A DNA stretch of 61,029 nt, counting the filler. It is 7 parts of 7 records of this genome, joined end to end, with 100 filler letters (N's around TTAATTAATTAA, not from the genome) between each part and the next. Parts side by side here need not be neighbours in the genome. Positions count along the whole stretch, not along the records: positions 55,233 to 61,029 come from DRR723986_61016; 6 more parts are not named here. One strand, given 5' to 3'. This document shows positions 1,335 to 61,029 of this stretch, in pieces. How positions within the stretch are numbered: the first letter of the stretch is position 1; each line of letters begins with the position of its first letter. The notes under the pieces were generated by a model. The model ran no database searches and was not told the origin of the DNA. It saw only the letters and a list, made by a program, of their open reading frames with translations. Position numbers and translations under genes: made by a program.

Positions 1335-1362
1335 TGCAGTCACCAATTTTCAATTGGTTTTA

Positions 1363-1800: not shown

Positions 1801-1801
1801 A

Positions 1802-2632: not shown

Positions 2633-2640
2633 TATATTTG
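2633..2640 (+). promoter_or_regulatory. Bacteroidota -7 promoter element (TAnnTTTG)
   Basis: TATATTTG matches the consensus; it points away from the abi gene and no ORF follows. Confidence 0.6.
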
Positions 2641-2645
2641 TACTG

Positions 2646-2721
2646 TTAGGTCTGATCAAGCCTCTTTCAGAAATGAAACGTAATCAGATAAAAGAATTGG
2701 CCCCTTTTTAGGGGCCTTTTG
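2646..2721 (+). ncRNA. candidate small structured RNA divergent from the abi gene (possible antitoxin)
   Basis: Upstream promoter element; TCTGAT 2651-2656 pairs with ATCAGA 2683-2688 and encloses a TTTCA-GAAA-TGAAA hairpin; ends in an intrinsic terminator. Confidence 0.55.
2699..2721. terminator. intrinsic terminator, possibly bidirectional
   Basis: GGCCCCT-TTTT-AGGGGCC followed by TTTT on the + strand; lies downstream of the minus-strand HNH gene. Confidence 0.75.
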
Positions 2722-2765
2722 TATTTAAAATCTAAAGAGGATATTTTTCATCTTCCACTAAGCTT

Positions 2766-3713
2766 TCAACCCAAAAACATCCCTCTGTGCCTTTCCAAAT
2801 TCTCTTGACTTGGCCATAGGTGTTTTTCACTGGGAAGTATAATTTTCCTCCCCTTAAGCTTAGCTAATCCATAAGGATGGCATAGATCTTCAATTACCTG
2901 ATCTGAAACCATGACTCTATAATCTTGATCTATAGCAACGAGTCCGCTATCAAATGCTCGATGCAGATTAGGACAAAGAGCAATTCCGTTGCTGACACGA
3001 TCATCCTGAGTACGACTAAAAGGAACAATATGGCAGGCATCAATCAGAGATCTTCCATTAATCGTACTCACTTTCATTCCTGTTATAGCACAGGTGCTTT
3101 GATAGATTTTGGGCACCACCTTTTTAAAAGTACAATTTCTAACATATACCACTTCTTCCTCTGCTACTTGCAGGCGCATTACTTTGGGCACTTCATTGAG
3201 GACGTATTGCTGCACTTCTTTCAAGTATTTTCCTTGTTCCCTGTTCGATGTAAAATAGTGATCAGTTGAGCCAGGAAAATAATGTTTGACTAGTATTTTC
3301 CTAAGCTCTTCTCTACTCTCCTTCACAGTTAAAATCTGAAAAACTGGTTCAAAAAAGAAAGCATATTCAACCAATTCTGAGAGGGTCTGAATACTTCTAA
3401 TATGCTTGGTTAACTGAAATCCAGGAAACGTCTTCAAAAACCAGAAAGAAGTGCTATCTACTTTATCATTCTGTAGGTGGTAGAAAGGAAGGGTGAAATC
3501 TTCTACAAAGCCAGCTGAGGCTAATATTTCCCAATTTTCATGAAAGGTAGAAACAAAGATATCATCGATATAAAACCTATTATCAGCACCGTACCCCCTA
3601 TCTAGCAAATCTAGAAGTGTCAATAGCAAAATGGGCTTATGGGGAGCAAGTCCATAGGGAGTAGAGCCTCTATTAAGTTTGGTTAAGCCAATAAAAACTC
3701 TTTCTATATTCAT
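2766..3713 (-). CDS. SBD-HNH putative modification-dependent restriction endonuclease
   Basis: N-terminal APHKPILLL and PFYHL resemble the sulfur-binding domain; C-terminal CAITG...DACHIVP...NGIALCPNLHRAFD is an HNH domain. Confidence 0.8.
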   Translation of the reverse strand: MNIERVFIGLTKLNRGSTPYGLAPHKPILLLTLLDLLDRGYGADNRFYIDDIFVSTFHENWEILASAGFVEDFTLPFYHLQNDKVDSTSFWFLKTFPGFQLTKHIRSIQTLSELVEYAFFFEPVFQILTVKESREELRKILVKHYFPGSTDHYFTSNREQGKYLKEVQQYVLNEVPKVMRLQVAEEEVVYVRNCTFKKVVPKIYQSTCAITGMKVSTINGRSLIDACHIVPFSRTQDDRVSNGIALCPNLHRAFDSGLVAIDQDYRVMVSDQVIEDLCHPYGLAKLKGRKIILPSEKHLWPSQENLERHRGMFLG

Positions 3714-3876
3714 CTATGAAATATCTTCGAATACCAAACTAACTAGAATTTACGATTTCACAAGTCAGGTATAGGTGAAAGAAATAGTACGAAAGCAAGT
3801 CTACCTTTTGCTTAAATCGAAAGAATTAGTCTATTTCAGGATACACAACAGACTTCTCCCAGCTAACTTTTTCAAT

Positions 3877-6800
3877 ATGCAAGAAGGAATTTATGAATCT
3901 CTGATATCCAAGCTCGTGCAATCAAAGCTTGATGAGTTGGATCAAGAGGTATTTTTTGTAGATCAAAAACCCATCGATAAAGCTGAAGCCAAGGATGTGC
4001 TTTCACAGTATTTCTCGGTAGTGCTCAAAAGGGCGCTTTCCTATCTATCAGGTGATGATGCAGTATTGAAGCAGATCGAATTGGTCAACAAACTAATCTT
4101 CTTAATCAAACAAGAACTAGATGAAGAGGATTTTGAGCAAGATCTACTAGCCCTGAATACTAGTTTTCTGACTGCTATCTATTCAAAACTAGACCTTGGA
4201 GTTTCAGACTTCCAATTGTTTCTCAAAAGCATCACTCCAGAATCAAGGTTGATCTTCAGTTCACTGATCACCGGAGGCGGTGGCCCCAAGAAACTCCAAA
4301 TGGACGGGGAATTACAAAAAGAAATCAGTTCCTCGGATCGCATAGATTTTTTGGTGTCTTTTATCAAGTGGGAAGGACTTAGACTTCTGATGCCGCAATT
4401 GGAAGAGTTCACTAAAAAAGGTGGAAAGCTTCGATTAATTACCACCACCTATGTGGGTGCTACAGATGCTAAAAGCGTGGAATTTCTAGCTAATCTTCCC
4501 AATACAGAAGTCAAGGTTTCCTACAATACCAAAAATGAGCGGGTACACGTCAAGGCGTACCTATTTTATAGAAATACGGGTTTTCATACTGCCTATATAG
4601 GATCTTCCAATCTTTCTAAATCTGCATTAACCAAAGGCTTAGAGTGGAATGTGAAGCTTAGCAATAAGGAAATACCTCAGGTGATAGAAACGGCTCAGCA
4701 TACCTTTGATACCTACTGGAATAGTAAAGATTTTGAAACTTATGACCATACTCGGCACTCTGAAAAATTGAAAGAGGCGCTTAAAGAAGGTCGATTTGGA
4801 GGTGGAGAAGGTATTGAAATCAATCTGGGATATTTTGATCTAAAGCCTTATACCTTCCAAGAAGAAATACTCGAAAAGTTGGAAGTAGAACGTTCAGTTC
4901 ATGGGAGGTTTAGAAATTTGTTAGTAGCCGCTACTGGAACAGGTAAGACGATAATTTCTGCTTTTGATTTCAAACGATTTTATCAGAAAAATCCAGCTGC
5001 CAAACTGCTATTTGTGGCTCATAGAAAAGAAATTCTACAGCAAGCTATGGGTACATTTCGAGGTGTTTTAAAGGATAATAATTTCGGTGAACTCTGGGCA
5101 GATGGTGAAGAGCCTACACAATACAAACAGGTCTTTGCATCGGTGCTAACACTGAATAATAGATTAGAGAATCTAGAATTATCTGCAGGCTACTTTGATT
5201 TCATAATTGTAGATGAGGTGCATCACATTACTGCCAACAGCTACCGTCCTATTCTTCATAAGTTTAAACCTCAGATATTGCTAGGACTTACTGCTACTCC
5301 TGAACGAATGGATGGGGCAGATATTTTGGAAGATTTTTGCGATCATATTGCTGCAGAGATCAGGCTTCCGGAGGCATTAAATCAAAAGTTGCTCTGCCCA
5401 TTCAATTACTTTGGAATCTCTGATACTGTAGATCTATCTAATGTTTCCTGGTCAAGAGGTAGGTACATGCCTTCTGAACTCAGTAACCTATACACTAGTA
5501 ATGATCAGCGAGTTGGGAATATCATTGGATCACTGGATAAGTATGTGACCGATATTCAAGAAGTAAGGGCTTTAGGGTTTTGTGTCAGTCAAGAACATGC
5601 TCAGTTTATGGCTGAAAAATTCAAACTAGCAAAGTTAAAAGCAGATTACTTAGTGAGTGGGAGAAATGATAACCGTCAACACATTCGAAATAGATTACGG
5701 AATAAGGAAATCAATTATTTGTTTGTAGTGGATATTTTCAATGAAGGTGTTGATATCCCAGAGATTGATACTGTGCTATTTTTAAGACCTACGGAGAGTT
5801 TAACAGTATTCTTGCAGCAGCTCGGAAGAGGACTTCGATTAGCTGATGGGAAGGACTGTTTGACTGTGTTGGATTTCGTGGGTAATGCTAGATCAGAATA
5901 TGACTTTGAAGGGAAGTATCGGGCGATGATAGGAAAGACAAACACCTCCATTAAAAGTGAATTAGAGCATAATTTCCAACATGTTCCCTTGGGGTGTTCC
6001 ATCATTCTAGAAAAGCAAGCTAGAGAAACGATCTTGAATAACATCAGGGCTTCTATTAGTCCAAATAGGAATCAGTTGATCCAGAAGATTAAGAACTTCA
6101 AACACCAATCTGACCTGCCCTTAACTCTAAAGAACTTTATACAGCTTTATCAATTTCCATTAGAAACTATTTATAAACGCTGGGTTTGGCAGAGTCTAAT
6201 TTTTGAAGCTCAGGTATCAACTAAGCCTGATTCAACCAATGAAAAACAATGGCAAAGCTGTGTTAATAAGAAATGGCTTTCTACAGAATCCTATTCCTAT
6301 TTTAAGTTTATCCTTGGGCTAGCTAAGAAAGACTTTCAAGTAGTGATGGGTGATTTGTCAGAAATTGAAAAAAGCATGTGCCTGATGCTTCACTATGATT
6401 TTTGGCAGAATGCTGGAGGTTTCAAGTCTTTAGAAGCAAGTATTAAGGCAATTGGGAAGAACCAAGGGCTGGTTAAAGAGATGATTGAAGTCTTGGAGAT
6501 CAGAATGGATCAGATTGGTTTTATGGAATTAGAAATTGATCTTCCATATGAACAGCCATTGAAGGTGCATAGCAGATACACTAGAGATCAAATACTGGCG
6601 GCATTCGGGTTCAGTACTTTTGAATCTAAATCCTCTAATCGAGAAGGAGTAGCTGATAATAGCGAACTGAATACAGAACTTATATTTATTGATCTGAATA
6701 AATCTGATGAGCACTACTCTCCCACGACCATGTATGAGGACTATGCTTTGAATGAAACCTTATTTCACTGGCAGTCTCAAAATTCAGCCCGTCCAGATTC

Positions 6801-7095: not shown

Positions 7096-7195
7096 NNNNN
7101 NNNNNNNNNNNNNNNNNNNNNNNNNNNNNNNNNNNNNNNTTAATTAATTAANNNNNNNNNNNNNNNNNNNNNNNNNNNNNNNNNNNNNNNNNNNN
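7096..7195. other. artificial contig linker
   Basis: N run with central TTAATTAATTAA (stops in all six frames). Confidence 0.99.
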
Positions 7196-7225
7196 TAAAC
7201 AGAGCTAAACAGAGCTAAACAGAGC
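7196..7225 (+). repeat. 10-bp tandem repeat x3
   Basis: (TAAACAGAGC)3 at the contig start. Confidence 0.85.
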
Positions 7226-7491
7226 ACCACGGTGCACCCACTCCGTCAGGTTGAACACTTTACTAACAGTACGCTTTTTCGCTTTCGACACGCAGGATGC
7301 GACGGGCGAGTTGGAAACAGGGACGCTAGACGAGTAGAGATGTCGCCCGAAGTCCATGAGTGCAGCAGAATCTCAATTCACGACTTCAGACGCCGCAGGT
7401 ATAAGTCCCGGGCTGACGCCCGCAACCGCAGCGGATTAGAATCTTGGATCAAGTTAGATCACCTAATCGTGCACAATCGAATGGACTCGCA

Positions 7492-10478: not shown

Positions 10479-11723
10479 ATGCCAAAGAATATTTTCAAAG
10501 TCATGTTGGTCGGTGGTGGCGCGGCGATGGCCCTGTCGCTGGGTGCTTGGCAAGCGTCGGAATCCAACGCCTTAGCACAGGATATTCAGTACCAGCGTGC
10601 TCAGGCCGGACAGGCTCAGTACACGAATCGCCCCGTGTGGACCCCGCAGCAGGGTGATGCCAAGCCTACCACTGCGCGAGTGTACTCCGGACAAGCCGCT
10701 CCTGCCCAAAGCTATTCGGCGATCGGAAGGTTCCCTACCTCTGCAGCAACTACCTCAGCCGGCAATTTCTTCACTTTCGAGGCTCGTAGAAACACGGAAG
10801 CAGAACGCAAAGCCGACGTCCAGATTAGAAAGCTGTTAGAGCGTGCGAAGGCCAGCAACGAAGAAGAAGCCGCAGAAGTGACTCAGGAAATCAAGGCAAT
10901 CGTCGCGTCACAGTTCGATTCTCGCCACGACGAGCAGGTCGCGAAACTCAAAAAGCTGGAAGCTCAGCTCGAGAAGACTCGCACCGCCTTGGCCAGCCGT
11001 GAAGACAACCGCGATGAAATCATCGATCGCCGAGTTAAGGAATTGCTCGGGCAATCCAATCCGTTGGACTGGAACTACGAACCGGGATCATCGAACACGT
11101 TTAGTCGCAGGTTCTCCGGCAGCAGTCAGTTCTTCCCTTCGGCTCCAGTAGCGCCGGCTTCGCCAAAGTTGTCGCCTCCAACAGGCTTGCCACCAGCTTG
11201 GCCAGGAGTGAGCACTGGTCCCGCACGCCTGCCTGTCCAAACGACGACATCGAAAGATCTAATCGGGATTGCTCATGACGCGGCCCGTGCCAAGACGAGC
11301 ATCGAACAAACAAGACGTCTCGTCGAAAAGGGCGTGGTATCCGCCAGCGAACTACGCGAAGCAGAACTATTGGTTTCAGAGGCGAACGCCCGTTTCGAAG
11401 CATCAAAGCGAAATCTTCAGCGTAAGCTTCGCGAGGCTCAGGCTCAGATGGAAGCCAAGCTGGCCGAACTCGAGTTAGCCAAGACTCAACTCGCAAGTGC
11501 GGAGGATCAGGCCGAGCGTGAAGCAACGCAAGCCAAGGTCCGAATCGCGGAAATCCTGGCCAAACAGGTCCAAGGTCAGCTCGAGGCGGTCGCCGAAGAC
11601 CTGAGCTGGATTCAGTCTTTCGAAGACGAACAGGCGGAGGCAAGAGAAGCCGAAACGAAAGCAAAGCAGGATGCAGAGAAGGAAAAGGCTAACGCAAAGA
11701 AGAGCAGCGGATCGCGAAACTAG
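10479..11723 (+). CDS. secreted coiled-coil hypothetical protein
   Basis: Signal-peptide-like N-terminus; long E/K/A/Q heptad-rich segments. Confidence 0.75.
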   Translation: MPKNIFKVMLVGGGAAMALSLGAWQASESNALAQDIQYQRAQAGQAQYTNRPVWTPQQGDAKPTTARVYSGQAAPAQSYSAIGRFPTSAATTSAGNFFTFEARRNTEAERKADVQIRKLLERAKASNEEEAAEVTQEIKAIVASQFDSRHDEQVAKLKKLEAQLEKTRTALASREDNRDEIIDRRVKELLGQSNPLDWNYEPGSSNTFSRRFSGSSQFFPSAPVAPASPKLSPPTGLPPAWPGVSTGPARLPVQTTTSKDLIGIAHDAARAKTSIEQTRRLVEKGVVSASELREAELLVSEANARFEASKRNLQRKLREAQAQMEAKLAELELAKTQLASAEDQAEREATQAKVRIAEILAKQVQGQLEAVAEDLSWIQSFEDEQAEAREAETKAKQDAEKEKANAKKSSGSRN

Positions 11724-11862
11724 CCCGCTTTCGTTGCTTCGTTGAATCGCCACTCGTCTGCCTTAAACTGAATCAACCGCCGCAAACCCGTTTGTGTTTG
11801 TTGGCGGTTCGCAGCTTGCCCGCTGACGACAGACAACACGAGCATCGGCCTATCTCAGTTTT

Positions 11863-14478
11863 CTAGTCGATAAAGTTCAGCTCGTTGCTGATCATCAGCG
11901 CTTGGCAAAGGACTGCTTGTGATGAAAGAGCTTCTGGCAACGGCTCGGGAAGCTGCTTCTCGCTGCGATATTCTCTTGTTCCAGGATTGTAGAATACTCG
12001 CACTTTCCACTCGAACGAATCGTGGTTCACGCCGCCAAAGCAATCTGTGACAAAGTCGATCGTGTCGCCCGCCTTGACGCGGATCGTCGGAACAAGTGTG
12101 TCGGCGCGTGAATTGTGGACCTGCCACTGCCCATGCTGTTCTGCGGTCTCACCAATTCCATGGATAATCGTAGCTCTAACTCCATCGCCAGGCTCGTTCT
12201 TGTGGATCACGCGTCCCGCGATAGATACGGAACCATCTTCAGGAGCAACCCAACGTCTAACGACGGCGTGCTCCAAATCATTGCCTGGATGCCCGCCGAT
12301 GTCATTGATGGTGCACCAACCTAGTTGCGTGTCCGGGAGATCTTTTCCGCCTTGCCAGGCAGCCCCAGTAAAATGCGGTAGCGGTGTGAATTGTTCTAGG
12401 CGTGATGTTTCCACATTGAAGGGACCGTAACCACAGATCCACTGCTCCGACACAACATCATGCCTAGGCTCATGTGAAAGTAGATCTAGTGCACCTTTTA
12501 GTTCACTTTTTGAAGGCGGTCGGCGTAAAATCTGCTTGAATACAGCTCTCGCCCAGCGTTCCCGATCTTCCATGGGCACTTCGGCTGAAATCTTCTCTGC
12601 AAGTCCGATCGCTAGCTCCGCCACGAAGGGACTGTTCATGAGAAACAGACCTTGCTGAGGTACACTGGTCTCGGCACGCCTAGCGGAGTGGGCATCGGGG
12701 CTAGCTAGGTCAAAAGTGCGGAAGACTGAGGGTAAATTTTGCCGATCGATGTACGCATAAACACTGCGGCGCCGGCTAAAATCTTTAGATTCAATTCTCT
12801 CACTGGGACCGAATAGCTTTGAATCCAATTGATCAGCAACTAGAAGCAGCGTGTCACGGGATGCTTCAAAGTCTAGGCGTCTGATGTTCATCCGCCAAAA
12901 CAACTCGTTGGCCGGATCCGCCTCCTGGCCGTGAAGCGTGTGACTCGACTGTTGATATGCTTCCGACGTGACAATATGTTTAATGAGGCTCTTGAGGCTC
13001 CAGTCGTTCGCAATCAGGTAGCTTGCCAAATGGTCGAGCAATTCGGAGTGAGCAGGTTCAGGGCAACGCAGCCCTAGGTCACTCGGCGACTCGACAATCG
13101 AATGACCGGTCAAATGCATCCACACTCGATTCGCGATCACTCGGGCCGTAAGTGGATTCTCCGCCGAAGCAATGCGTTCGGCAAGCTCAAGACGGCCGCT
13201 GCCTTGCTGAAAATCGGTTGCTGTACGATTGAGGAAACTCACGAACCGTCGCGGAGCCTTCTCGCCTCGATTTCCACGCTGCCCCCGAATCAAGACAAAT
13301 GACGGAATAAGCTCTTCCCGATCGACCAATCGATGCGGCCAAGGCTCACCGCCCGGTTCCTGGGCATTCAAGAAGACACCGTAGAGCCCATAGTAATCTT
13401 TTTGTGTCACGGGATCGTATTTGTGGTCGTGACATCTGGCACACGAAACCGTTAACCCCATCAGCCCCCTTGAGACGACGTCGATTCGATCATCGATGAT
13501 GTCGTTCTGATTGTTCAGGAACCTTCGTCCGAGAGTTAAAAATCCCAAAGCAGGGATATTGTCAGGCGTTGCATCAGGAATCACATCAGCGGCTATTTGG
13601 TGCTTCAGGAACTCGTCATAGGGCATATCCTTGTTCAGCGACCGTATCAACCAGTCACGATACTTGTATGCTTCGGGGTACTCGCGATCTTCGCGGAAGA
13701 CATAGCCCTTGTTATCTGCATACCTAGCGACGTCCATCCAGTACCGTGCCCACCGTTCACCGAATTGTTCATTGGCGAGTAGTTCATCACAGACTGCCCC
13801 GACGTCAATCGTTCCGGAGTTATGTGTACTCGCCAAAATTTCTGCAGAAGGCGGTAGACCAATCAAGTCGTAATGAAGACGCCGCATCAGGCTTGTTGGC
13901 ACTGCTCGGCGTGATTGTTTTAGGCCGTGGCCTGTGAGGACTTTGTTGATCAGAAAGTCGACGGGGTGTCCAGTCGCAGGCGTCTCCTGTGAACTGATCG
14001 GTTGAAACGCCCAATGATCCTCGCCGGAGATACTCGCGGCCTCCTTTGCTGGGGCAGTGCCGACAAAGGAATCGGGAACGGGCGTACCCGCGTCAATCCA
14101 TTCGCGAAGTATCGCAATTTCTTTGTCGTCCAGCTTCCCGTCGGGCGGCATCTGCAACCTCGAGACGTCGTACGAAATGGCCTTCAACAGCAAAGACTTC
14201 TTACCGCCAGCGAGAACGTTGCCTCCAGCGCCGCCAGCTTGCATGGACGACAGGCTGTCCAGCACGAGTCCACCTTCGGCTTCGCCGCTTGCATGCGAAT
14301 GGCATTCGAAGCAACGCGATTGCAAAACTGTAAGAACTTTCTCAAACGACTCGTCTGCTCCGGCAGAACAAGTGCATGCTATCCAAGATGCCAGTATCAA
14401 CGCGATATTGGCTGCCAGACGCACAAACGCCGGCTTGCTTCGAATCAGGTGGACATCGCTTTGGTTGGTAACGCTCAT
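11863..14478 (-). CDS. planctomycete cytochrome c / DUF1549-DUF1553 (PSCyt2/PSD1) protein
   Basis: Heme motifs CFECH and CARCHDHKYDP; FGERWARYWMDVARYAD; NPLTARVIANRVW. Confidence 0.92.
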   Translation of the reverse strand: MSVTNQSDVHLIRSKPAFVRLAANIALILASWIACTCSAGADESFEKVLTVLQSRCFECHSHASGEAEGGLVLDSLSSMQAGGAGGNVLAGGKKSLLLKAISYDVSRLQMPPDGKLDDKEIAILREWIDAGTPVPDSFVGTAPAKEAASISGEDHWAFQPISSQETPATGHPVDFLINKVLTGHGLKQSRRAVPTSLMRRLHYDLIGLPPSAEILASTHNSGTIDVGAVCDELLANEQFGERWARYWMDVARYADNKGYVFREDREYPEAYKYRDWLIRSLNKDMPYDEFLKHQIAADVIPDATPDNIPALGFLTLGRRFLNNQNDIIDDRIDVVSRGLMGLTVSCARCHDHKYDPVTQKDYYGLYGVFLNAQEPGGEPWPHRLVDREELIPSFVLIRGQRGNRGEKAPRRFVSFLNRTATDFQQGSGRLELAERIASAENPLTARVIANRVWMHLTGHSIVESPSDLGLRCPEPAHSELLDHLASYLIANDWSLKSLIKHIVTSEAYQQSSHTLHGQEADPANELFWRMNIRRLDFEASRDTLLLVADQLDSKLFGPSERIESKDFSRRRSVYAYIDRQNLPSVFRTFDLASPDAHSARRAETSVPQQGLFLMNSPFVAELAIGLAEKISAEVPMEDRERWARAVFKQILRRPPSKSELKGALDLLSHEPRHDVVSEQWICGYGPFNVETSRLEQFTPLPHFTGAAWQGGKDLPDTQLGWCTINDIGGHPGNDLEHAVVRRWVAPEDGSVSIAGRVIHKNEPGDGVRATIIHGIGETAEQHGQWQVHNSRADTLVPTIRVKAGDTIDFVTDCFGGVNHDSFEWKVRVFYNPGTREYRSEKQLPEPLPEALSSQAVLCQALMISNELNFID

Positions 14479-52678: not shown

Positions 52679-54685
52679 TTAGCGTTTAACCAACTCAATA
52701 ATTACCGTGCGGTTATAGAACCGACCCTCCGGCAGGGAGTTGTCAAAATTAAAGCGCTGATCCGACTCGCCATATGGAATCGTCTCAATCTCGGCTTTAA
52801 CACCACGACTGTTAACCGCCTTGCGTAATACGTCGCGAACTTCCGTGGCGCGCTGCTGTGAAATTTCGTAGTTGGCTTCCCGTGTACCGATAACATCAGT
52901 GTGACCATACAGCAGGACTTCATAATTTGTGCTAATTAATGGAGCCACTTCATTTCGTAGGAACTTGTCATAGGTTCTGACTGCATCGTCCGCGCCAAAG
53001 GGGAAGACGATAGAGTAGCGTACGCCTTCAAGAACAACGTCGTCTTTAACCTTGCGGCGCAGGCTAAACTTCTCTTCGTGGCGCTGGACCGATCCATTAC
53101 GCATTTCGATTTCAACCTTGGCGGTGTAGCTGCCTGAACGCGCATCGCCCATAAAGCTGACTGGATCGATACGCTGTACGGTACGGCGCAATGGTCCGTA
53201 ACGTTTTGTGCCATTACTACCTTCAACCGTCACAAACCAGCGGCGGACATCCACGATTGAGCTCAGGCCCACCACGATGTCATTGCTGATATTGGCGTCG
53301 CGAACCTGTTCAATTTTTACGGGTTTACGCAGAGCGGGGTCGCTGCTAACAATTTCTACGCGGCGATTTTCCTGAGCCACGAGGTCCAGGTCTTTCTGCG
53401 GTGTACCGGCGGATCCGGATGGATCGCGCGGCATTTTACGTCCTTCAACTTCAATGCGGCTAGTTTCGATGCCGAACACCGAATTCAGGTAATCGCGCAC
53501 CGAGGTCGCCAGTTCCGCACCATTGTTTTCAGCAGGCGCCGAACCGATCAGTTTAACCTTAGTGGCAGGATTATCGCGCATGCGCGCACCGAGAACGTTG
53601 AGCACATTGTAGTAGGATTTCATCTGCTGACTGTAGCGCTCGGAGCTGTTAAGTTCGCCGATGCGGCTGTCTTTCATCAGCTTGTCTTCCACAAAACTCT
53701 GCGCATCGCTTTTGTTTAAGCGAACGTATCGCGCCGGAATTGCTGTCCGGCCCGGCTCAAAAAATACCTGTGGAATCAGCGGGAAAAACTCTTCGACGCG
53801 CTGCTGGCGAATCAGGCCGTCCAGCGGCGTAAAAACGCGCGCATTGATGCTGCTAAGGGGTGCCTCGGGTTCACTAAATGAGATGCCGGGCTCCTTTTTT
53901 GCCGCTGGTTCGCCGCCAAACTGCATCGTAAGCGCCAGACCGGCACGTACGCTGACCGTACTCCAGATATCGTCAATTGCGTCCTGTTCATCACTTGCCG
54001 GGAGTTTACTCTCGCGCTGATTGACCATCCAGCTGCCTTCCAGGAAGGGGCTGAGCACCCAATTAGTTGCCGCCGGTTCGCCGAGGACAAAGTCCATACC
54101 AACGCCGCCGGATATGCCATACGTGGGGCTGTTGGCCTGATCTAACTCCACGTCACTGAAGCGTTCGGTTTCTGCCGGGCCAACTTCAAGGTCAAATTCA
54201 GCAGCAGTATTAAACGCCAGGAGGGGGCCAACCGTGAAAAAGGGGGCATTTCTGTCAAAAGGGGCTATGCGCAGCAGTGTTTCGATGCTCACATATTCCA
54301 TTTTGGCATCAAAGGTCTGCTCCGGTGATTTGTTTATCTCCGTAGCATCGCCGGAACGTGAGTCATAACTCACACGCAATTGCCCGCCCCACCAACTTTC
54401 GGAGAGATATTCGGCACGCAGGCCACCATAGATTCCAAGGCCACTGCCATCATTTAATTCAAAGCTTCTAAAGTTTACAGCATCTGTGCCCGGAACAGGT
54501 AAGTCCTGGAAGCCCAGCCCAAGGAAATTCAGATTGGCACCCGCATGCACGCCAAAACGCCACAGGCCTTCCGCATTGGAATCTTGCTTGTTTGACTGAG
54601 AAAAAGCCGTCGTGGCTGGTAAAATGAGCAAAGCAGTTGCATACAGCAGAGACATATGTATCTGCCGCGTTCGGAATTCACGCAT
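52679..54685 (-). CDS. OmpA family protein (N-terminal beta-barrel, two OmpA-like domains)
   Basis: Signal peptide; LIGSAP...NRRVEI; GHTDVIG...NYEISQQRA...NRTVII. Confidence 0.88.
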   Translation of the reverse strand: MREFRTRQIHMSLLYATALLILPATTAFSQSNKQDSNAEGLWRFGVHAGANLNFLGLGFQDLPVPGTDAVNFRSFELNDGSGLGIYGGLRAEYLSESWWGGQLRVSYDSRSGDATEINKSPEQTFDAKMEYVSIETLLRIAPFDRNAPFFTVGPLLAFNTAAEFDLEVGPAETERFSDVELDQANSPTYGISGGVGMDFVLGEPAATNWVLSPFLEGSWMVNQRESKLPASDEQDAIDDIWSTVSVRAGLALTMQFGGEPAAKKEPGISFSEPEAPLSSINARVFTPLDGLIRQQRVEEFFPLIPQVFFEPGRTAIPARYVRLNKSDAQSFVEDKLMKDSRIGELNSSERYSQQMKSYYNVLNVLGARMRDNPATKVKLIGSAPAENNGAELATSVRDYLNSVFGIETSRIEVEGRKMPRDPSGSAGTPQKDLDLVAQENRRVEIVSSDPALRKPVKIEQVRDANISNDIVVGLSSIVDVRRWFVTVEGSNGTKRYGPLRRTVQRIDPVSFMGDARSGSYTAKVEIEMRNGSVQRHEEKFSLRRKVKDDVVLEGVRYSIVFPFGADDAVRTYDKFLRNEVAPLISTNYEVLLYGHTDVIGTREANYEISQQRATEVRDVLRKAVNSRGVKAEIETIPYGESDQRFNFDNSLPEGRFYNRTVIIELVKR

Positions 54686-55103
54686 TATAATACCTGAGAA
54701 AATGAATAAATCAATGCAGTGTGGGTGGTTGGCAAGTTGTGCATTTAAGTCTGGTTTCAATGATCAGAATACATGTAAATTTACCGCGATTACCACTATT
54801 TAGTTTTATGGGTACCGGCATCTTTTCGACAGGATCGTTCTCAAGGGTTTCACGGTATTTACGGTTTTCATGGTTGTCGTGGAAGTGATGGTTTTTAAGG
54901 TCGTCATTGGGTAGAGACGAGGCATGCCAAGCCTCCCATACTTTGCAATTCTCGACGATGGATAAAAAAATTGTAGCGCTGTCGGTAGTCATCAATTGAT
55001 GAATTGCCGTCTTGATAATTGGCACTATCTCTGGGTTCGTTGCTTGTTTGCTGTTGGGTGCAGCGGTGTTAATCATTGCAACTCTTGGCACTGCGGGATA
55101 GTA

Positions 55104-55232: not shown

Positions 55233-55259
55233 TATTTTCCTGATCCTGACAGGCTTGTT
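55233..55259 (+). repeat. terminal direct repeat, left copy (27 nt)
   Basis: TATTTTCCTGATCCTGACAGGCTTGTT is identical to 61003-61029. Confidence 0.97.
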
Positions 55260-55332
55260 CCTCGCTCTTGTCGCCGCGCTCTATTTCGTGGAGCGACCGA
55301 AACCGGCACCTGCCGGTGGTGGCGGTCATTGA
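55234..55332 (+). CDS. 3' end fragment of a probable DHA2/EmrB MFS transporter
   Basis: IFLILTGLFLALVAALYFVERPKPAPAGGGGH*: a final TM helix plus P/A/G-His tail, as recalled for alphaproteobacterial EmrB. Confidence 0.6.
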   Translation: MFLILTGLFLALVAALYFVERPKPAPAGGGGH

Positions 55333-55374
55333 TTTCAAGATAGTGGATCATCCGGACGAGCACTGCCGTGTCGA

Positions 55375-57429
55375 TCAGGCCTTTCTGTCCGGTCCGAAAC
55401 GAATTCTTCGTTGCATCCGGCCGCCGCCAATTCGCGTATTGGCCGGTCTTGACGGTGGCGGATGATCGTCAAATGCAGCCTGTGCACTGACGTCACCCTT
55501 CGTTGCGGTTTGGCCTTGTGCAAGCCTGTCGGCCATCCATCGGGCAACCTGAGGCGTCGCGACACTGGTTCCGTCGAGAGACACAAGCGATCCGCAGCGT
55601 GATCCGGCACTCAATATGCCTCGCAGGACCGGTGTGTCGTCGCTGACCGCGGCCGCATCCGGACCGTTTCTCGTCGGACCGGTTGCATTGAATGCCGTTG
55701 TTACCGGACCGGCGGCAGAATAGCCGGCCAGATCGTTGCGGGTTTCGACATATCCAGCAAGAACGGCGGGAAACTCGCCGCAGGCAAAGCCGCTTATGGT
55801 GCCGCTGCGTTTGACCAGGCAATCGGATCCGGGCGGATCGATCGGCAAGGGGGCACCAAAGCTGTCGAAACGCTGATAGTCGTCATTGTCGAAATAGGAT
55901 TGACGTCCCAATGCCGGGAACCCGGGCAAGGTTTCGTCGCGCCGGATCCAGACCTGAACCCGATCGGCTTCGGTCAGGGCAACATTCTCGATTTCGATTT
56001 TCCAGACACCGGAAGGTGCCAAATCATCCGTGACGTCGTGATGAAAGGTCGGGTGAACGCCGACGACAATGCAACCGCGCCAGGTTGGCGCGTGGGGAGG
56101 TGTGTAGAGGATCCGGCCGAATTCCACGTTGTCTCCGGAATGGAGGATCGCAGTCTCTCCAGGCACTGTTGAAACCGGCGTACTCCTCGGTCCCACGGGC
56201 GGCGTAACGCGCACTCTCACAAGGTTGTCGGGGTTCTCCTTCGGCGGCATCCAGATCTCGACGTAGCTCGCGCTGCGGTCGTCAGGCTGAATGCGCCAGT
56301 CGAGGCTTGCGGGCCTGACGTTACCCGTATCCTCATCCGTGAAGGTAATCTCCGCGTGGGTGCGCGCCAGATTGCCGTTCCCGGCAGGAAGAGTTACCTG
56401 AATTTCACGCTGGGTGGTCGAGTGAAGCTCGTGATCGATCTTCGCTTCGATCAGACCGGTACCATCGTGCGGTCCTGCAAAATTCCCGAAACTGAAATTG
56501 ACCACCAGCGGGATCCGCTTGCCGTGATCGGTATCGAGCCGGAAGCGTTCCGCGTGTATCTTGATGAAGTCGATCGCGCGTCCCAGAGCTGGCAGGATCT
56601 GCGCTCCGCTGACATCCATGGTGAGATCGGTTGGCAACTGCACGCAGATGATGGGGCGCGTGTTGTCCTTCGTGCCGGGTTGGTAACCGGCGGCAAGTCC
56701 CATCACATGGGTGCCGTGGGACACGCGCATGGCGGCCGGCTTGAGCCCGGGCCAGCTGTAGTCGATCAATCCGCACTGACTGTAGAAGCGGTTCTCATCG
56801 AGGAGCCCGCTGGCCGTGTTCGCGGCAAGCAACCCGTCGATTTCGCTCCTGGCAAGGGCGTGTCCCTGCGGGACGACGAGGGTGCCGGTCCGCGGTTTGG
56901 CGTCCATGATCCAGGCAAAGGAAACGCGTGACGCATTTGGGTCGGTTTTCCGGAAAAGTTCATGGCCGAACGCGATGCCGTTGTCGATGACAGCGGTAAC
57001 AACGGAACCATCCTCGACAAATATTTCCGGCAGATTGCCGGGCATGATCTGCGTGCTCGTGTCGAGCTGTCCAACCGGAACGACAGTCCCAAGGATGATG
57101 CGTTTTATGCCGAGTTGTCCCGCGTTCCTCGTCGCTTCCTGCAAGAAGATGTCTTTTGCGTAGAGTGAGGGATACAGGATCGCTTCTTTGGCCGCCCGCT
57201 CTTGCGCGGTATAGAAATTCGGGATGAGGACTGCGTCCTCAAGCCCGTTGCCACCGCCGATATCCTTGGCCCTGGCGATCAGATCATCGAGTGAGATGTC
57301 ATCGAGCTCGACGAGGATGTCCCACCAAGTGTCTTCTTCTCCGGATCCGAACTTTGCTGCAACAGCCAGCCGCCAGTTCGTGACCGGATCGATTGAAAAT
57401 TCATCAAGGGTTCCGTTGGTATCCGACAT
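55375..57429 (-). CDS. S8 family subtilisin-like serine protease, no signal peptide
   Basis: AVIDNG (Asp), HGTHVMGLAAG (His), PAGNGN (oxyanion Asn), GTSVATP (Ser); RBS GGAGG. Confidence 0.92.
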   Translation of the reverse strand: MSDTNGTLDEFSIDPVTNWRLAVAAKFGSGEEDTWWDILVELDDISLDDLIARAKDIGGGNGLEDAVLIPNFYTAQERAAKEAILYPSLYAKDIFLQEATRNAGQLGIKRIILGTVVPVGQLDTSTQIMPGNLPEIFVEDGSVVTAVIDNGIAFGHELFRKTDPNASRVSFAWIMDAKPRTGTLVVPQGHALARSEIDGLLAANTASGLLDENRFYSQCGLIDYSWPGLKPAAMRVSHGTHVMGLAAGYQPGTKDNTRPIICVQLPTDLTMDVSGAQILPALGRAIDFIKIHAERFRLDTDHGKRIPLVVNFSFGNFAGPHDGTGLIEAKIDHELHSTTQREIQVTLPAGNGNLARTHAEITFTDEDTGNVRPASLDWRIQPDDRSASYVEIWMPPKENPDNLVRVRVTPPVGPRSTPVSTVPGETAILHSGDNVEFGRILYTPPHAPTWRGCIVVGVHPTFHHDVTDDLAPSGVWKIEIENVALTEADRVQVWIRRDETLPGFPALGRQSYFDNDDYQRFDSFGAPLPIDPPGSDCLVKRSGTISGFACGEFPAVLAGYVETRNDLAGYSAAGPVTTAFNATGPTRNGPDAAAVSDDTPVLRGILSAGSRCGSLVSLDGTSVATPQVARWMADRLAQGQTATKGDVSAQAAFDDHPPPSRPANTRIGGGRMQRRIRFGPDRKA

Positions 57430-57461
57430 GACTTGACCTCCGGTTCGACTTTGCTATGCGA

Positions 57462-58760
57462 TCACGAGCCGTCGTCTTCCAAAGGCGAGGCACCATCACC
57501 ACCATCCTCGAGTGTTCCGCCACCGCTGCTGCCACCGGCACAGGGTTCCCTCAGGTCCAGCCATTCCTGCTTTGCGCGGTTCCACAGCCAGGCCAGCGGC
57601 CTGGATTGAATGGTCGTGCCGGTGAGGGACGTTGTGGTTTCGTCGGCCCAGGCTCCCGGGTCCTTCTGAGTGTGGGTTGCCGGATCGTAGAGCTGTGTCC
57701 AGTCGAAATCCCGGCTGTCAGGGTACTGGTCGCCGTGGAAAGCCCATCCCTTGATTTCATTGGAACCCTGGCACCGACCCGCGAAATAGGCGCCGAGCGT
57801 AAGTCCGAGAATTGCGCCGGCCTCGCTGTCTACCGGAAAATGTACACCCGCGACGGTGCGGTTTACTGCAATGCGCGAGGCCTGGCGCATGAACATCTTG
57901 CCCCAGATCGTGTCGTCATAAGGCACGACACCGGCATCCCTCAGGAGGAGCCAAAGGACCCGGGCCAGCGTGAAGGCTTCCGTCGAATGACCGCTCGGCA
58001 GGGTGCCATGCGTGGGCGTCAGGATCATCGGCTGGATCTGCGGGGAGAATTCTATCGGACGCTTGCAGGCCAGGGCATACTTGATCCGCATCTCCACCAG
58101 GTTGGCGAGACCCTGCGCAGTTGCCAACAGCTCGATCGTATATGGTGTTCGAGCCGGTGCGATGAATGCGATTGACCGCAGAAATTCAACAGGTGTGCTG
58201 AGTTGGGCGATAATTTCAGCCGCACGATCCTGCCGCAGGTCTGCATAATTTGCCACGAGATCGAGCTGCTTCTTGAAGATCGCCATGGTTGGGCGAGACA
58301 TCCTGGCGAGCATGGCATAAGCCGCGAGTGGCGTATCGGTCCCGTCAGGGTTGCTGGTCACGTTCAGGTGCCATACCTGAGCCGTTCCGGAGCACGTTCC
58401 CTCAAACTTGAAGGTGAAGCCGAGCCTCGATGCCAGTTCAAGTGTGTAAATGCTTTGCCGGACTTCCGGAGAGAGGCGGCCTAGAAAAGCATCGTATTCC
58501 GGGCAGTTTTCCTGGATGGCCGCCGTAACAGTCTGCCAGGTTCCGGCAATGCCATCGTGATTGGTGATCAGCGCGTTCACGATCAGCGGTGCATCGAAGG
58601 AAGGGGCGCCGCCAAACCCGCCAAAACCACCAAATCCCCCGAAGCCTCCAAACCCTCCGAACCCGCCAAATCCCCCGAAGCCGCCGAAGCCCCCAAATCC
58701 TCCAAAGCCTCCGAAGCCTCCGAAGCCGCCTGCCGGATATGCTGTTTCCCTAGGTGTCAT
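57462..58760 (-). CDS. PAP2 / vanadium-haloperoxidase superfamily enzyme with N-terminal (GGF)13 tract
   Basis: K-x6-RP (KYALACKRP), PSGH, R-x5-H-x3-D (RTVAGVHFPVD). Confidence 0.9.
   Translation of the reverse strand: MTPRETAYPAGGFGGFGGFGGFGGFGGFGGFGGFGGFGGFGGFGGFGGFGGAPSFDAPLIVNALITNHDGIAGTWQTVTAAIQENCPEYDAFLGRLSPEVRQSIYTLELASRLGFTFKFEGTCSGTAQVWHLNVTSNPDGTDTPLAAYAMLARMSRPTMAIFKKQLDLVANYADLRQDRAAEIIAQLSTPVEFLRSIAFIAPARTPYTIELLATAQGLANLVEMRIKYALACKRPIEFSPQIQPMILTPTHGTLPSGHSTEAFTLARVLWLLLRDAGVVPYDDTIWGKMFMRQASRIAVNRTVAGVHFPVDSEAGAILGLTLGAYFAGRCQGSNEIKGWAFHGDQYPDSRDFDWTQLYDPATHTQKDPGAWADETTTSLTGTTIQSRPLAWLWNRAKQEWLDLREPCAGGSSGGGTLEDGGDGASPLEDDGS
58608..58730 (-). repeat. coding tripeptide repeat (Gly-Gly-Phe)13-Gly-Gly
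   Basis: 9-nt units GGN-GGN-TTY with mixed synonymous codons. Confidence 0.95.
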
Positions 58761-58805
58761 GACTAACTCTCCCTACCTTTTTGATTGGCCGGTTCCGCTC
58801 CATTC

Positions 58806-60605
58806 TCAGGGCGGCAGTCCGGCTTGCCTTAGGGTTTCGGCGAAGTCCTTCCCAACCTGAAACTGCGCACTTGGCGAATTCTTCAGCCAGCGGCTTACGG
58901 TCAGATCCGGCTGACGCTCGCGCAGTTCGCTGATGGTCTGAGCTGCCAGTTCGGTGTGTCCAAGGCGCATTTCCGCGACAGCCTTGGCACGCAGCGTCGA
59001 GGTGTGCGCGCGGTTGGAGCGAAGCGACTGGTTGGCGAACTCGAGAGCGCGGTCATATTTTTCGGCCGTAACGCAGGCGGATGCCGCAAGCGACAGGAAA
59101 AAGTACCTGTAGGGATCGATGGGAGACAGGCGGAGGGCCAGTTCCGTGTCCTTGACAGCTTCCTCGCCAGCTCCCTTGAACGCGAAGAGAGTGCCGCGCA
59201 GCAGGCGACCCATGGCGTAATTCGGATTGTACTCGAGGGCCATGTTGTAACGCTGTTCAGCTTCTTCGAGCTTGTGCGCGAGATTCGTGAGGGCAAATCC
59301 TTCGGACACAAGGGCCGTGACATTTGTCGGGTCGTGGTCGAGCGCGGTTTGCGTGCAGCTCAAGGCAAGGGATTTTTCGCGCTCGGGCGAATCCGTCCAC
59401 CCCTGTTGAACCGCCAGAACGTGCCATTTTGCCTTCCATGCCAAGGCCATTGCGGGTTGGCGCGACGAACGGTGAATCAGTTCGTCAAGAAGTTCGGCGG
59501 CGTATTCGAAATGATGGCGCGAGAGCCTGTAGATCAGTCCGATCGCGCTCATGAGAAGCGAATAGGCATCGAGTGTCTGCATCGGGCAGGAAAGTGCCTG
59601 TTGCACCTCGCTCCGGAAGATTGCCGCGTGGCAGTCCTTGGCGAACTGATAAATGACGGATGAATCGCTAAGGAGGGTAGGAACCTCCTCGCTCAGGCGA
59701 TCCGACCAGATCACGCGACCGGTTTTTGCGTCGGCGAGTTCCGCGTCAAGAATTACGTGGTTCGCATCACCGCTATAGGTCCCCGACAGGACAAAATCCG
59801 CCTGAAGCGTCTCCGAGATCTTGGCAAGGGAGATGTTCCGCATGCGAAAACCTGTCGTCGAAAGGCGGGAAATGACATTGAGTTCCGAGGACCGCGACAG
59901 TGCGACGATCAATTCCTCTGCGAGCACTTCACCGAGCACGTAATTGTCTCTTGATCTGCTGCGTGGCGTGAAGGGAATAACCGCGACGGTGGGGAACAGG
60001 TCTTCGAATTGCTGTAACGGGAAAATGCTCGGGTGAGTTCCCACGGGATGAACCCTGAAGGCCCGCACCGTCTCGGCGACATTCTTGAGGTGGCAATCCC
60101 CAAGATCCTCGAATTCCGCGTCGAGTTCGCTTGCCAATGCATCCCTGACCTCCGCGGAGGCAACGATCTCTCCGGGGCGGGCAAGCGACATGAGACGGGC
60201 GGCAATGTTGACGTGGTTGCCATAAATGTCGTCATCGCCGGTGGTGAGCACGTCGCCGGTGTCGATACCGATGCGTACCTGCAACCGGTTCACGGCAGGG
60301 AGTTGCTCGTTGATCTTTGCCAGTTCCGCTGTGAGACGCATTGCAAACCGGACTGCGCTTGTTGCGTGCTCGATTTCAGCCAGAATGCCGTCGCCCAAGG
60401 ACTTCACGAGCCTGCCATCGTGTTCCGGCAGAAGGTCATCTTTCAGGTAGGCGACAAAGGAGAGCCAAGCTCCTATGGATGCATTGTCGGCGGTCGTAAA
60501 CAGCCGCGCAGATCCAACTACGTCGGCAAAAAGTATTACTTTCTGCCGATTCTCCCATTTTTCGAATAGCCGTACGGGCTTTCGGTATTCAGCGGCTGCC
60601 TGCAT
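58806..60605 (-). CDS. class III adenylate cyclase with TolB-N-like and TPR domains
   Basis: LFADVVGS, VKSLGDG, RIGIDTG, DIYGNHVNIAARL; PTVAVIPF; TPR repeats (ALEYNPN, ALRLSP). Confidence 0.93.
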   Translation of the reverse strand: MQAAAEYRKPVRLFEKWENRQKVILFADVVGSARLFTTADNASIGAWLSFVAYLKDDLLPEHDGRLVKSLGDGILAEIEHATSAVRFAMRLTAELAKINEQLPAVNRLQVRIGIDTGDVLTTGDDDIYGNHVNIAARLMSLARPGEIVASAEVRDALASELDAEFEDLGDCHLKNVAETVRAFRVHPVGTHPSIFPLQQFEDLFPTVAVIPFTPRSRSRDNYVLGEVLAEELIVALSRSSELNVISRLSTTGFRMRNISLAKISETLQADFVLSGTYSGDANHVILDAELADAKTGRVIWSDRLSEEVPTLLSDSSVIYQFAKDCHAAIFRSEVQQALSCPMQTLDAYSLLMSAIGLIYRLSRHHFEYAAELLDELIHRSSRQPAMALAWKAKWHVLAVQQGWTDSPEREKSLALSCTQTALDHDPTNVTALVSEGFALTNLAHKLEEAEQRYNMALEYNPNYAMGRLLRGTLFAFKGAGEEAVKDTELALRLSPIDPYRYFFLSLAASACVTAEKYDRALEFANQSLRSNRAHTSTLRAKAVAEMRLGHTELAAQTISELRERQPDLTVSRWLKNSPSAQFQVGKDFAETLRQAGLPP

Positions 60606-61002
60606 GAATTTCCTCGCAGCGACAAAAACGTACCACCTGAAAACAGTCTAAAATCAAAGATCAGGCACCAATTTTTCCCAGAAATAATGATATGACGAAT
60701 AATGATTGTTTCGCATAGACAGGTTTTCATACGCGTTTTCAACGCGAGCTACGCTACGGCCAGGCGAAATCGCTCTGTGTCCACTTGCGTGTTCGATAAT
60801 ATCTTTCTTTTTGCCGCTTCTAGCTTGCCTTCAATCTAGTCATCTGTAAAGCAATACCGTTATTACGCTAGGGAAGTTTTCCTTAAATATTTAAATTTGA
60901 TTGTTTTGGGTGCGCATTTGCACTCGATCGTCGGAAAACAGGGAGGCGATGTGCTCTCGGTGCAATTGGCACTCGTGAAGCCTTCCGGCTGTCCTTCTTG
61001 GA

Positions 61003-61029
61003 TATTTTCCTGATCCTGACAGGCTTGTT
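61003..61029 (+). repeat. terminal direct repeat, right copy (27 nt)
   Basis: Identical to 55233-55259. Confidence 0.97.

Follow-up and report, generated by a model that had tools for sequence, protein, structure and literature searches.

In a three-gene bacterial cassette, the tripeptide unit repeated in the N-terminal tail of an enzyme changes from lineage to lineage together with a few residues of a sensor encoded by the neighboring gene. The cassette fills the entire last contig (55233–61029, 5.8 kb) of a window of 61,029 nt, by which we mean the whole stretch of DNA that was analyzed. It encodes a transducer that joins a class III cyclase, predicted to be of adenylate type, to a tetratricopeptide repeat (TPR) sensor (gene 1), a PAP2 family enzyme whose tail consists of 13 consecutive Gly-Gly-Phe units, (GGF)13 (gene 2), and a subtilase of family S8 (gene 3). 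Homologous loci keep the three genes in order and retain the tail, whose unit varies, and transducer residues 437, 584, and 588 vary with it. We propose that the cassette is a self-contained signaling device of the cytoplasm in which the TPR sensor would bind the tail and the protease would cut it, switching cyclic AMP (cAMP) synthesis or transcription, a reading to which we give about even chances.

Conservation of the trio and its repeat tail

The three genes form a stable unit across genomes. Using an alignment of PAP2 homologs as the query against one genome per species, we recovered at least 549 relatives and analyzed the best 80 loci; a scan of metagenomes gave at least 498 relatives, and 80 of their loci were analyzed as well. 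A preliminary description of this locus had tied the idea of a single system to the genes being found together elsewhere, and they clearly are: the trio has the same order and strand in 79/80 genome loci, and in the 80th the contig starts inside the PAP2 gene. Among metagenome loci the trio is in order in 58/80, most of the others being broken by contig ends. Where at least 2,100 nt are available upstream, the transducer gene lies on the same strand in 38/40 metagenome loci, the other two being one locus with a divergent transducer (L145) and one without it (L111), and where at least 2,300 nt are available downstream the S8 gene is present in 49/49. In L145 the divergently transcribed transducer gene occupies positions 1367–3784 on the minus strand. 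In a subfamily at only 35–39% identity, gene order and tail are alike retained in 4/4 loci examined. A search among longer proteins found no fused forms of the trio proteins, which is weak evidence. No fourth gene is generally conserved: the commonest flanking family, an ATP-binding cassette (ABC) ATPase, occurs in 16/80 loci and short-chain dehydrogenases in 8/80, both being generic families that appear on either side of the cassette, the ABC ATPase on either strand.

The tail is nearly universal and its unit is highly variable. Homologs with an intact 5′ end start with a few residues (often ending G-P-E), followed by a tripeptide array and then by a segment of the SPL...ALITNRDGIVG type. Exact arrays of at least four copies are present in 76/80 genome loci (the array is imperfect in L025 and L044, cut in L008, and not resolved in L063), and a tripeptide unit was found in 75/80 metagenome loci, with three of the other five cut by contig ends. 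Arrays range from 4 to 17 exact copies of a lineage-specific unit, and 34 different units occur among the 73 loci of the cassette tree described below. Units of genome loci include GGF, GAF, GSL, SSL, GGL, SGF, AGI, GAY, GGV, GGI, SGH, NSF, SSY, NAY, DAL, NGL, and NAH, to which metagenome loci add GGT, GGM, GGA, SGW, AGF, QSF, and others; the common pattern is a small residue, a second small residue, and a third that is mostly hydrophobic or aromatic. A collagen-like tail was considered and rejected on the grounds that many units have no Gly (SSL, NSF, NAY, DAL, NAL, RAQ).

The coding sequence bears on how the array is maintained. In the cassette studied here, (GGF)13 is exact as protein and is written in mixed codons (Gly as GGC 12, GGA 8, GGG 6, and GGT 2 times; Phe as TTC 6 and TTT 7 times, in mixed order), which suggests that the repeat is kept by selection on the protein and not by slippage of the DNA. 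Copy number differs between near-identical strains, with 13 units here and 12 in the complete chromosome G096 (proteins of 432 and 429 aa), and sequencing runs X4, X8, and X13 show a 9-nt deletion at window position 58705, inside the GGF tract, equal to one repeat unit. The tail is predicted to be disordered, residues 1–55 of the AlphaFold2 model having a predicted local distance difference test score (pLDDT) below 50. Genomes with two cassettes have different units in the two (8/8 genomes, which are partly related, so that the cases are not independent).

Annotation conceals much of this. The closest named protein to the gene 2 product, P0001 of Roseibium aggregatum (‘phosphatase PAP2 family protein’, 99% identity), is 372 aa long against 432 aa here, its annotated start being placed after the tail. 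The tail is thus hidden in databases, since annotation begins the phosphatase behind it. On the Phaeobacter inhibens plasmid pP72_b (L166), a gap of about 360 nt (5537–5899) separates the transducer gene from the annotated PAP2 start, and a close relative (L052) has an NSF tail in the corresponding gap; here, too, the tail was probably missed by annotation, as in R. aggregatum.

Co-variation of repeat unit and sensor

Changes of the unit coincide with changes at particular positions of the transducer. A tree of 73 cassettes was built from the conserved parts of the three proteins, with the tail and the output domain left out, and changes were placed on it by parsimony. We then scanned 1,353 alignment columns against four traits (5,412 tests), asking whether changes in a column fall on the branches where the unit changes. 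The best result of the scan links transducer residue 437 to unit position 1 (P = 3.9e-7; Bonferroni-corrected, about 2e-3): unit position 1 changes on 19 branches, and these carry 14 of the 19 changes of residue 437, where 3.6 are expected. When the unit begins with G, residue 437 is F (37 loci) or H (8 loci), without exception in 45/45 loci; when it begins with another residue, position 437 holds L, I, M, V, N, Q, A, or C, and F or H in 0/28. Phylogenetically independent pairs of loci agree on this rule in 13/13 cases (P = 2.4e-4).

Unit position 3 is tracked by residues 584 and 588 (Table 1). The relation is one of complementary size, larger side chains in the unit going with smaller ones in the sensor and vice versa. 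A further rule, that a unit ending in Y goes with T, N, or Q at residue 584, was tried and dropped: it holds in 15/15 loci of the first set and in 6/6 independent pairs (P = 0.03), and it is not exclusive in the held-out set described below.

Table 1. Transducer residues that accompany each residue at unit position 3
Unit position 3	Residue 584	Residue 588
F	V/I	F (mostly)
Y	N/T/Q/H	F (mostly)
V, A, T, G, M, I	I/T (mostly)	W (mostly)
L	M/I/L/V	F or A (mostly)
W	I/V	I/V

Genetic linkage would be expected to affect whatever is encoded near the tail, and the PAP2 protein provides a control. Among its residues 62–120, which are encoded beside the tail, 1–2 of 51 columns reach P < 0.05; among transducer residues 480–600, 11–12 of 100 columns do so. 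Enrichment in the transducer and none beside the tail argues against mere linkage. The ligand of the sensor is most likely the repeat tract itself, as far as patterns of sequence change can indicate, a possibility that the preliminary description had not raised.

Both the columns and the binary groupings were picked after the scan, and hence we examined a held-out set of 40 metagenome loci with less than 90% identity in the TPR region to the scanned loci and to each other. The co-variation held there: G at unit position 1 against an aromatic residue at 437 gives 19/0/2/19 in a Fisher’s exact test, which ignores shared ancestry; W588 accompanies small residues at unit position 3 (V/I/A/T/M/G) in 19/19 loci and other residues in 0/21, a count with the same neglect of ancestry; and Spearman correlations of side-chain volumes are −0.82 and −0.76. 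Several points weigh against recognition of the tail by the sensor, and against the signaling scheme built on it. In the held-out set, 17 loci whose unit does not end in Y also have T, N, or Q at residue 584, and T584 is found with small unit residues too. Only a few sensor columns co-vary, not one per TPR repeat, which indicates that the superhelix does not read one unit after another over its full length; the sensor probably reads one or two units. That residues 437, 584, and 588 line a single groove is a supposition. It draws on the TPR register, in which P461 at motif position 32 assigns residue 437 to helix A, position 8 or 9, and on the i/i+4 spacing between residues 584 and 588. Columns of the S8 protease show no enrichment for co-variation with the unit (0–3% at P < 0.05, by region and trait), and nothing links this protein specifically to the tail. 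The exceptional locus L111 has no transducer homolog within the 4 kb upstream (positions 1–4000). Finally, both binding and cleavage are inferences, and the scheme offers no explanation for the role of the phosphatase domain.

The three proteins and their locus

The reading frames, start regions, and active sites are as the preliminary description had them. It had reported three co-directional genes with short gaps and sequences resembling ribosome-binding sites, and open reading frame (ORF) calls give gaps of 45 nt (genes 1–2) and 32 nt (genes 2–3), with the Shine-Dalgarno-like motifs GGGAGAG, GGAGG, and GAGGAA ahead of the ATGs of the three genes (Table 2). It had called the catalytic motifs of the cyclase, PAP2, and S8 proteins intact, and every residue it listed is present. 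It had seen no evident signal peptide, and the hydropathy scan agrees: none of the three proteins has a signal-peptide-like N terminus or a hydrophobic segment, no 19-residue window reaching 1.6 on the Kyte-Doolittle scale, and all three are probably cytoplasmic. A consensus scan for promoters and terminators gave nothing above chance. Short contigs from two transcriptome studies (runs X4 and X13) span both gene junctions and the tail; these contigs are assembled and may include DNA carry-over, a concern raised by contigs of 14 kb and 25 kb in runs X1 and X8, so co-transcription stays a prediction.

Table 2. Features of the cassette and its flanks, in window coordinates
Feature	Position	Strand	Basis
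Gene 1, transducer (class III cyclase, FlgO/TolB_N-like domain, TPR sensor), 599 aa	58806..60605	-	ORF, Pfam
Cyclase catalytic domain (residues 23–175)	60081..60539	-	Pfam PF00211, E 1.9e-17
FlgO/TolB_N/LpoB-like alpha/beta domain (residues 206–299)	59709..59990	-	Pfam PF17680, E 6e-6
TPR sensor and conserved C-terminal segment (residues ~320–599)	58809..59648	-	TPR families; invariant columns
F437 codon, tracks unit position 1	59295..59297	-	Co-variation scan
V584 to F588 codons, track unit position 3	58842..58856	-	Co-variation tables
Gene 2, PAP2 enzyme with N-terminal repeat tail, 432 aa	57462..58760	-	ORF, Pfam, AlphaFold2
(GGF)13 tail (residues 11–49)	58614..58730	-	Codon table; pLDDT < 50
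PAP2 catalytic core (residues ~160–335), three PAP2 motifs	57756..58283	-	Conserved residues; Foldseek, VIA-align
Gene 3, Csp-like S8 subtilase, 684 aa	55375..57429	-	ORF, Pfam S8, AlphaFold2, Foldseek
Left flank, 3′ end of neighboring gene for a major facilitator superfamily (MFS) transporter	55233..55335	+	Homology to MFS gene 3′ end in L001 and L161
Right flank, degenerate second copy of MFS 3′ end	60974..61029	+	Alignment; G096 chromosome; 25-kb contig of run X8

The transducer combines a constant sensor with an exchangeable output. In gene 1, Pfam finds Guanylate_cyc (63.9 bits against a cut-off of 21.9) together with FlgO and several TPR families. Residues D28, K68, D72, D126, N133, and R137 are present, each conserved in at least 34/36 cyclase-type homologs; from alignments of Rv1625c and mammalian cyclases, we take them to be the two metal-binding Asp residues, the Lys/Asp substrate pair, and the Asn/Arg pair of the transition state. 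Among 76 transducer homologs, FlgO is matched in 10 and LpoB in 4, and TPR families match in up to 71. Every invariant column of these 76 proteins lies beyond residue 205, where the FlgO-like domain and the TPR region are, and the TPR region holds those from F366 onward, including N531, H534, S536, and R539. The output differs, being Guanylate_cyc in 41/76 homologs and Trans_reg_C in 32/76 by Pfam, and the sensor is thus the constant part of the protein. On the cassette tree, 42 cyclase-type and 31 winged-helix-type loci are separated by a single change, so that, as read from domain matches and the tree, the output is a module swapped once, a class III cyclase against the OmpR-type winged-helix DNA-binding domain of a sister clade. 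With a winged helix replacing the cyclase in 31/73 cassettes, cAMP is one of two outputs and not the core of the system. Class III cyclases and OmpR-type winged helices typically act as dimers or oligomers.

In 14 loci, mostly from Rhodobacteraceae, the transducer gene is immediately preceded on its own strand by a conserved gene of about 215 aa that matches no Pfam family (L037 at 4981–5661, and the equivalent place in L043, L044, L046, L047, L049, L050, L059, L061, L065, L066, L068, L074, and L075). The transducer of L037 is of winged-helix type by Pfam, and in the 13 others no match to the cyclase query precedes residue 126. This upstream gene may be a fourth member of the winged-helix-type subtype.

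The product of gene 2 is a PAP2 enzyme with unusual additions. Its Pfam match to PAP2 reaches 45.7 bits, over a cut-off of 27.2. Of the three PAP2 motifs, KxxxxxxRP is represented by K227/R234/P235, PSGH by P255-S256-G257-H258, and SRxxxxxHxxxD by R301/H307/D311, with the third motif starting at N300 rather than S. Among 31 PAP2 sequences, the PSGH residues and the others named for the motifs vary little or not at all: K227, R234, H258, R301, and H307 are invariant, and P235 and D311 nearly so. The AlphaFold2 model has a mean pLDDT of 80.9 and contains an extra alpha/beta module with strands at residues 113–155 and 336–379. The core aligns with class A acid phosphatases by Foldseek (E = 3e-7, TM-score 0.64–0.68) and by VIA-align (7f17, 2a96, and 8yc1; Z 17.3–17.7, root-mean-square deviation 2.3–2.5 Å over 198–203 residues). 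Vanadium haloperoxidases give Z 10.5–13.8 and a Foldseek value of 4e-3, and the active-site residues common to the two groups leave the chemistry undecidable from sequence. The preliminary description had assigned a PAP2/haloperoxidase fold; the modeled core fold is closer to the class A acid phosphatases than to the haloperoxidases. With these phosphatases (PhoN, PhoC, EB-NSAP, and the Pseudomonas aeruginosa enzyme 7f17) the gene 2 product has the core fold and the three motifs in common. Class A acid phosphatases are secreted to the periplasm. The gene 2 product, unlike them, has no signal peptide, opening instead with MTPRETAYPA and the GGF array, with no hydrophobic segment, and it carries the extra module and the repeat tail.

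Gene 3 encodes a subtilase that resembles the Csp proteases in its modeled fold. Pfam Peptidase_S8 matches at 24.1 bits, just over the cut-off of 21.8, and the Asp-His-Ser triad and oxyanion Asn (D149, H238, S622, and N351) are invariant in 73 sequences. In the AlphaFold2 model (mean pLDDT 90.6, predicted TM-score 0.93), an N-terminal module resembling a prodomain, the catalytic domain, and an inserted beta-sandwich can be distinguished. Foldseek aligns the model to CspA, CspB, and CspC with E values from 1.3e-24 to 4.8e-22 over 557–696 aligned columns (TM-score about 0.7 on the target), the next-best family being at 1.7e-7; the Csp proteases are thus the best structural match by a wide margin, and the extra domains that set them apart from other subtilases are also in the S8 model. 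Sequence identity to them is only 14–18%, and with the NCBIfam CspBA model the protein reaches 22.7 bits where the cut-off is 1,250, well short of orthology at the sequence level. The protein is accordingly Csp-like in fold only, as modeled, with its catalytic residues intact. CspB, as presented in the cited part of its description (PMC3567191), keeps its prodomain bound, has an inserted jellyroll domain, and activates the proenzyme pro-SleC by one cut. The present cassette differs from the Csp system in having no sporulation context and in pairing the protease with a repeat-tailed phosphatase in place of a cortex hydrolase. We also considered that the S8 protein is a tripeptidyl-peptidase, which is not supported, given that it does not co-vary with the unit.

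The likeness to CspB invites a simpler account, plain activation of a proenzyme, with the tail as propeptide, the subtilase as maturase, and the transducer either regulating transcription of the operon or chaperoning the proenzyme. The Csp-like fold would fit, as would a partner whose N-terminal extension is disordered and separate from the folded core, and the similarity across loci of the segments that flank the array. A propeptide, however, needs neither an exact repeat nor a unit that changes 34 times; it is the transducer that co-varies with the unit, not the phosphatase core adjoining the tail; and a cyclase-type transducer, having no DNA-binding domain, is not a simple operon regulator. 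We consider this account unlikely.

The window itself is an artificial assembly. Seven contigs are joined by six N...TTAATTAATTAA...N linkers, with linker motifs at window positions 7140, 18415, 27918, 40142, 47584, and 55177, and the contigs have GC contents of 0.37, 0.54, 0.54, 0.34, 0.59, 0.48, and 0.58, in order. The window is a mixed bin or pseudomolecule of unrelated contigs, so neighborhood across linkers means nothing and no other gene of the window physically adjoins the trio. A 693-aa ORF lies at window positions 52679–54760, on the minus strand, on the adjacent unlinked contig. Over its whole length the trio contig is 96.6% identical to the chromosome G096, and it is 97.7% identical to the metagenome contig L081; to judge from these matches and the R. 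aggregatum protein, it derives from a Roseibium-like organism. In a Roseibium locus (L001), a second gene of cyclase-TolB_N-TPR type lies directly 3′ of the S8 gene, before the MFS gene (11575–13455).

The cassette is bracketed by a repeat. An exact 27-nt sequence occurs at both contig ends, with one copy starting the left flank, and the trio is enclosed by an imperfect direct repeat, some 125 bp long, that derives from the 3′ end of the MFS-transporter gene (in L161 the copies lie at 7190–7370 and 12985–13135). In the G096 chromosome the cassette stands between the MFS-transporter gene and a degenerate copy of the last ~125 bp of that gene, an arrangement that the 25-kb contig of run X8 also spans. 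A circular plasmid, suggested by the 27-nt end repeats, was rejected, as the chromosome and the X8 contig show a linear direct-repeat context. The position of the repeat explains why the assembler stopped there. The repeat looks like an insertion scar, going by its sequence, and the cassette contains no integrase or transposase.

Hosts of the cassette are Alpha-, Beta-, and Gammaproteobacteria of marine and soil origin (Rhodobacterales, Hyphomicrobiales, Rhodospirillales, Burkholderiales, and one member of the Chromatiales), and the distribution is patchy, with a match in 32/121 genomes of the family sampled around genome G001. The PAP2 gene is found on 35 plasmid records, 21 of them from Phaeobacter, and on none of 50,697 phage records. 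On one P. inhibens plasmid, the trio is annotated only as ‘winged helix-turn-helix domain-containing protein’, ‘phosphatase PAP2 family protein’, and ‘S8 family serine peptidase’. Patchiness, plasmid carriage, and bracketing repeats of the kind left by insertion would all suit an anti-phage or conflict system in which the cyclase signals on infection, the protease or phosphatase is the effector, and the tail varies through an arms race; PADLOC returned matches to PycC, the Pycsar cyclase, in the cyclase domain, which are generic and weak (best E = 1.2e-8). Neither the S8 nor the PAP2 protein, however, is matched by any PADLOC model, and Pfam finds in neither of them a cyclic-nucleotide-binding domain with which an effector of Pycsar or CBASS type would sense the signal. 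In 31/73 cassettes the output is a DNA-binding domain in place of a cyclase, the flanking genes belong to ordinary metabolic and transport families, phage homologs are lacking as noted, and the partner with which the tail co-varies is its own, a sign of internal matching and not of an external target. We therefore regard a defense function as improbable.

Proposed signaling by a tethered repeat array

We find no characterized system that corresponds to the trio, in agreement with the preliminary description. Literature searches returned no published description of it, no NCBIfam model reaches its cut-off for any of the three proteins, and PADLOC gave nothing beyond the PycC matches. The favored reading lies close to the sensor-to-protease signaling module suggested at the outset; what has to be given up is the cyclase as a fixed part, in view of the winged helix in 31/73 cassettes. 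In the mechanism that we propose, the TPR sensor would bind the tripeptide unit of its own cassette’s tail directly, residue 437 contacting unit position 1 and residues 584 and 588 of the C-terminal helix contacting position 3, so that each lineage, and each of the two cassettes in one genome, would use its own matching pair. The subtilase would cut the tail, a plausible idea already put forward in the preliminary description, analogous to the activation of pro-SleC by CspB; since it does not track the unit, its recognition site is more likely in the constant flanks, or else any hydrophobic residue ahead of the cleavage site would do. Such a cut would change the balance of tethered and free tail in the cytoplasm and thereby switch the output of the transducer, and it might also free or activate the phosphatase. 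The array may serve to gather several transducer molecules, or to yield many identical ligands from one protein. In this scheme we infer the physical binding, the cleavage, the direction of the switch, and the existence of a triggering signal.

One parallel is with the RRNPP family (Rap-Phr, NprR-NprX, PlcR-PapR, PrgX, and AimR-AimP), in which, as here, a cytoplasmic TPR receptor is encoded beside the gene for its peptide and co-varies with it, and the output is transcription or an enzyme activity. The differences are substantial. In the present cassette the ligand would be a tandem array on the N terminus of a 432-aa enzyme and not a small secreted propeptide; the output domain is Guanylate_cyc or Trans_reg_C (OmpR-type) and not an Xre-type helix-turn-helix or Rap-type domain; a dedicated subtilase is included; and the hosts are Proteobacteria.

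This parallel raises the possibility of cell-to-cell quorum sensing of the RRNPP kind, in which free tripeptides or short oligomers, cut from the tail by the subtilase, would leave the cell, re-enter, and be sensed by the TPR domain, with the units acting as pherotypes. A receptor adjoining the gene for its ligand, co-variation of the two with 34 units among 73 loci, and different units in the paired cassettes of 8/8 genomes are all features of such systems, and the common preference of subtilases for a hydrophobic residue ahead of the cut suits unit position 3. Export is difficult to accommodate: the three proteins have neither a signal peptide nor a membrane segment, and no transporter is conserved nearby, the ABC ATPase being present in only 16/80 loci and on either side and strand. 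Tripeptides such as GGF or GGA, moreover, carry little information and would be common in the peptide pool of any cell, and the S8 protease shows no co-variation with the unit. Descriptions of RRNPP systems, in the cited part of PMC10075063, are limited to Firmicutes and the mobile elements of these hosts. Quorum sensing therefore seems to us an unlikely explanation, if one to be kept in mind.

Two other comparisons concern how a short unit could be read. In the cited part of PMC10115654, designed repeat proteins bind four to six tripeptide units in register along a superhelix. They are the nearest structural concept, and the idea of the present system would be similar, a helical repeat protein that draws specificity from a few side chains per unit; the designed binders are man-made and engage four to six units, whereas here few positions co-vary and the binding is a proposed one.

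Natural TPR receptors offer a second precedent. PEX5, for the PTS1 signal, and Hop, for EEVD, bind C-terminal tripeptides or short tails, the TPR groove reading a brief motif whose last residue is hydrophobic. A cut after unit position 3 would expose an end of this sort, a comparison made by description only. A more specific form of our proposal is that the S8 protease cuts after the hydrophobic third residue, producing many identical ligands with tripeptide ends that are read through residues 437, 584, and 588 into cAMP or transcription. We hold this form possible, with more doubt than belief.

A repeated core fused to an enzyme and encoded next to an S8 gene could instead belong to a ribosomal peptide natural product, with a multi-core precursor that, in the manner of borosins, is fused to the enzyme that modifies it, and with the subtilase releasing the products; S8 proteases do take part in the maturation of several peptide natural products. 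There is little to modify, however, in units such as GGA, SGA, and GGL, and we know of no PAP2 phosphatase that acts as a peptide-modifying enzyme. No exporter or immunity gene is conserved, and it is the regulator that co-varies with the unit, not the enzyme core or the S8 protein. Such a pathway is very improbable, and neither a role in defense nor one in making a peptide natural product finds much support.

The module is widespread, with relatives at least in the hundreds in both genomes and metagenomes, yet its genes bear only generic names, and it is present on plasmids of the model organism P. inhibens. If our proposal is right, the cassette would represent a peptide ‘second messenger’ released from a tethered store and a natural, programmable code between peptides and TPR domains, in which lineages and paired cassettes would be kept separate through nothing more than a change of the unit and of the pocket residues that match it. 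It would be the natural counterpart of designed binders of tripeptide repeats, and its size-matching code could supply orthogonal peptide-receptor pairs for synthetic biology. For the bacteria that carry it, it would be a new mode of signaling, if the proposed binding and cleavage hold, in which a ligand array is carried on an enzyme, a protease acts as gatekeeper, and the output is a second messenger or the binding of DNA.

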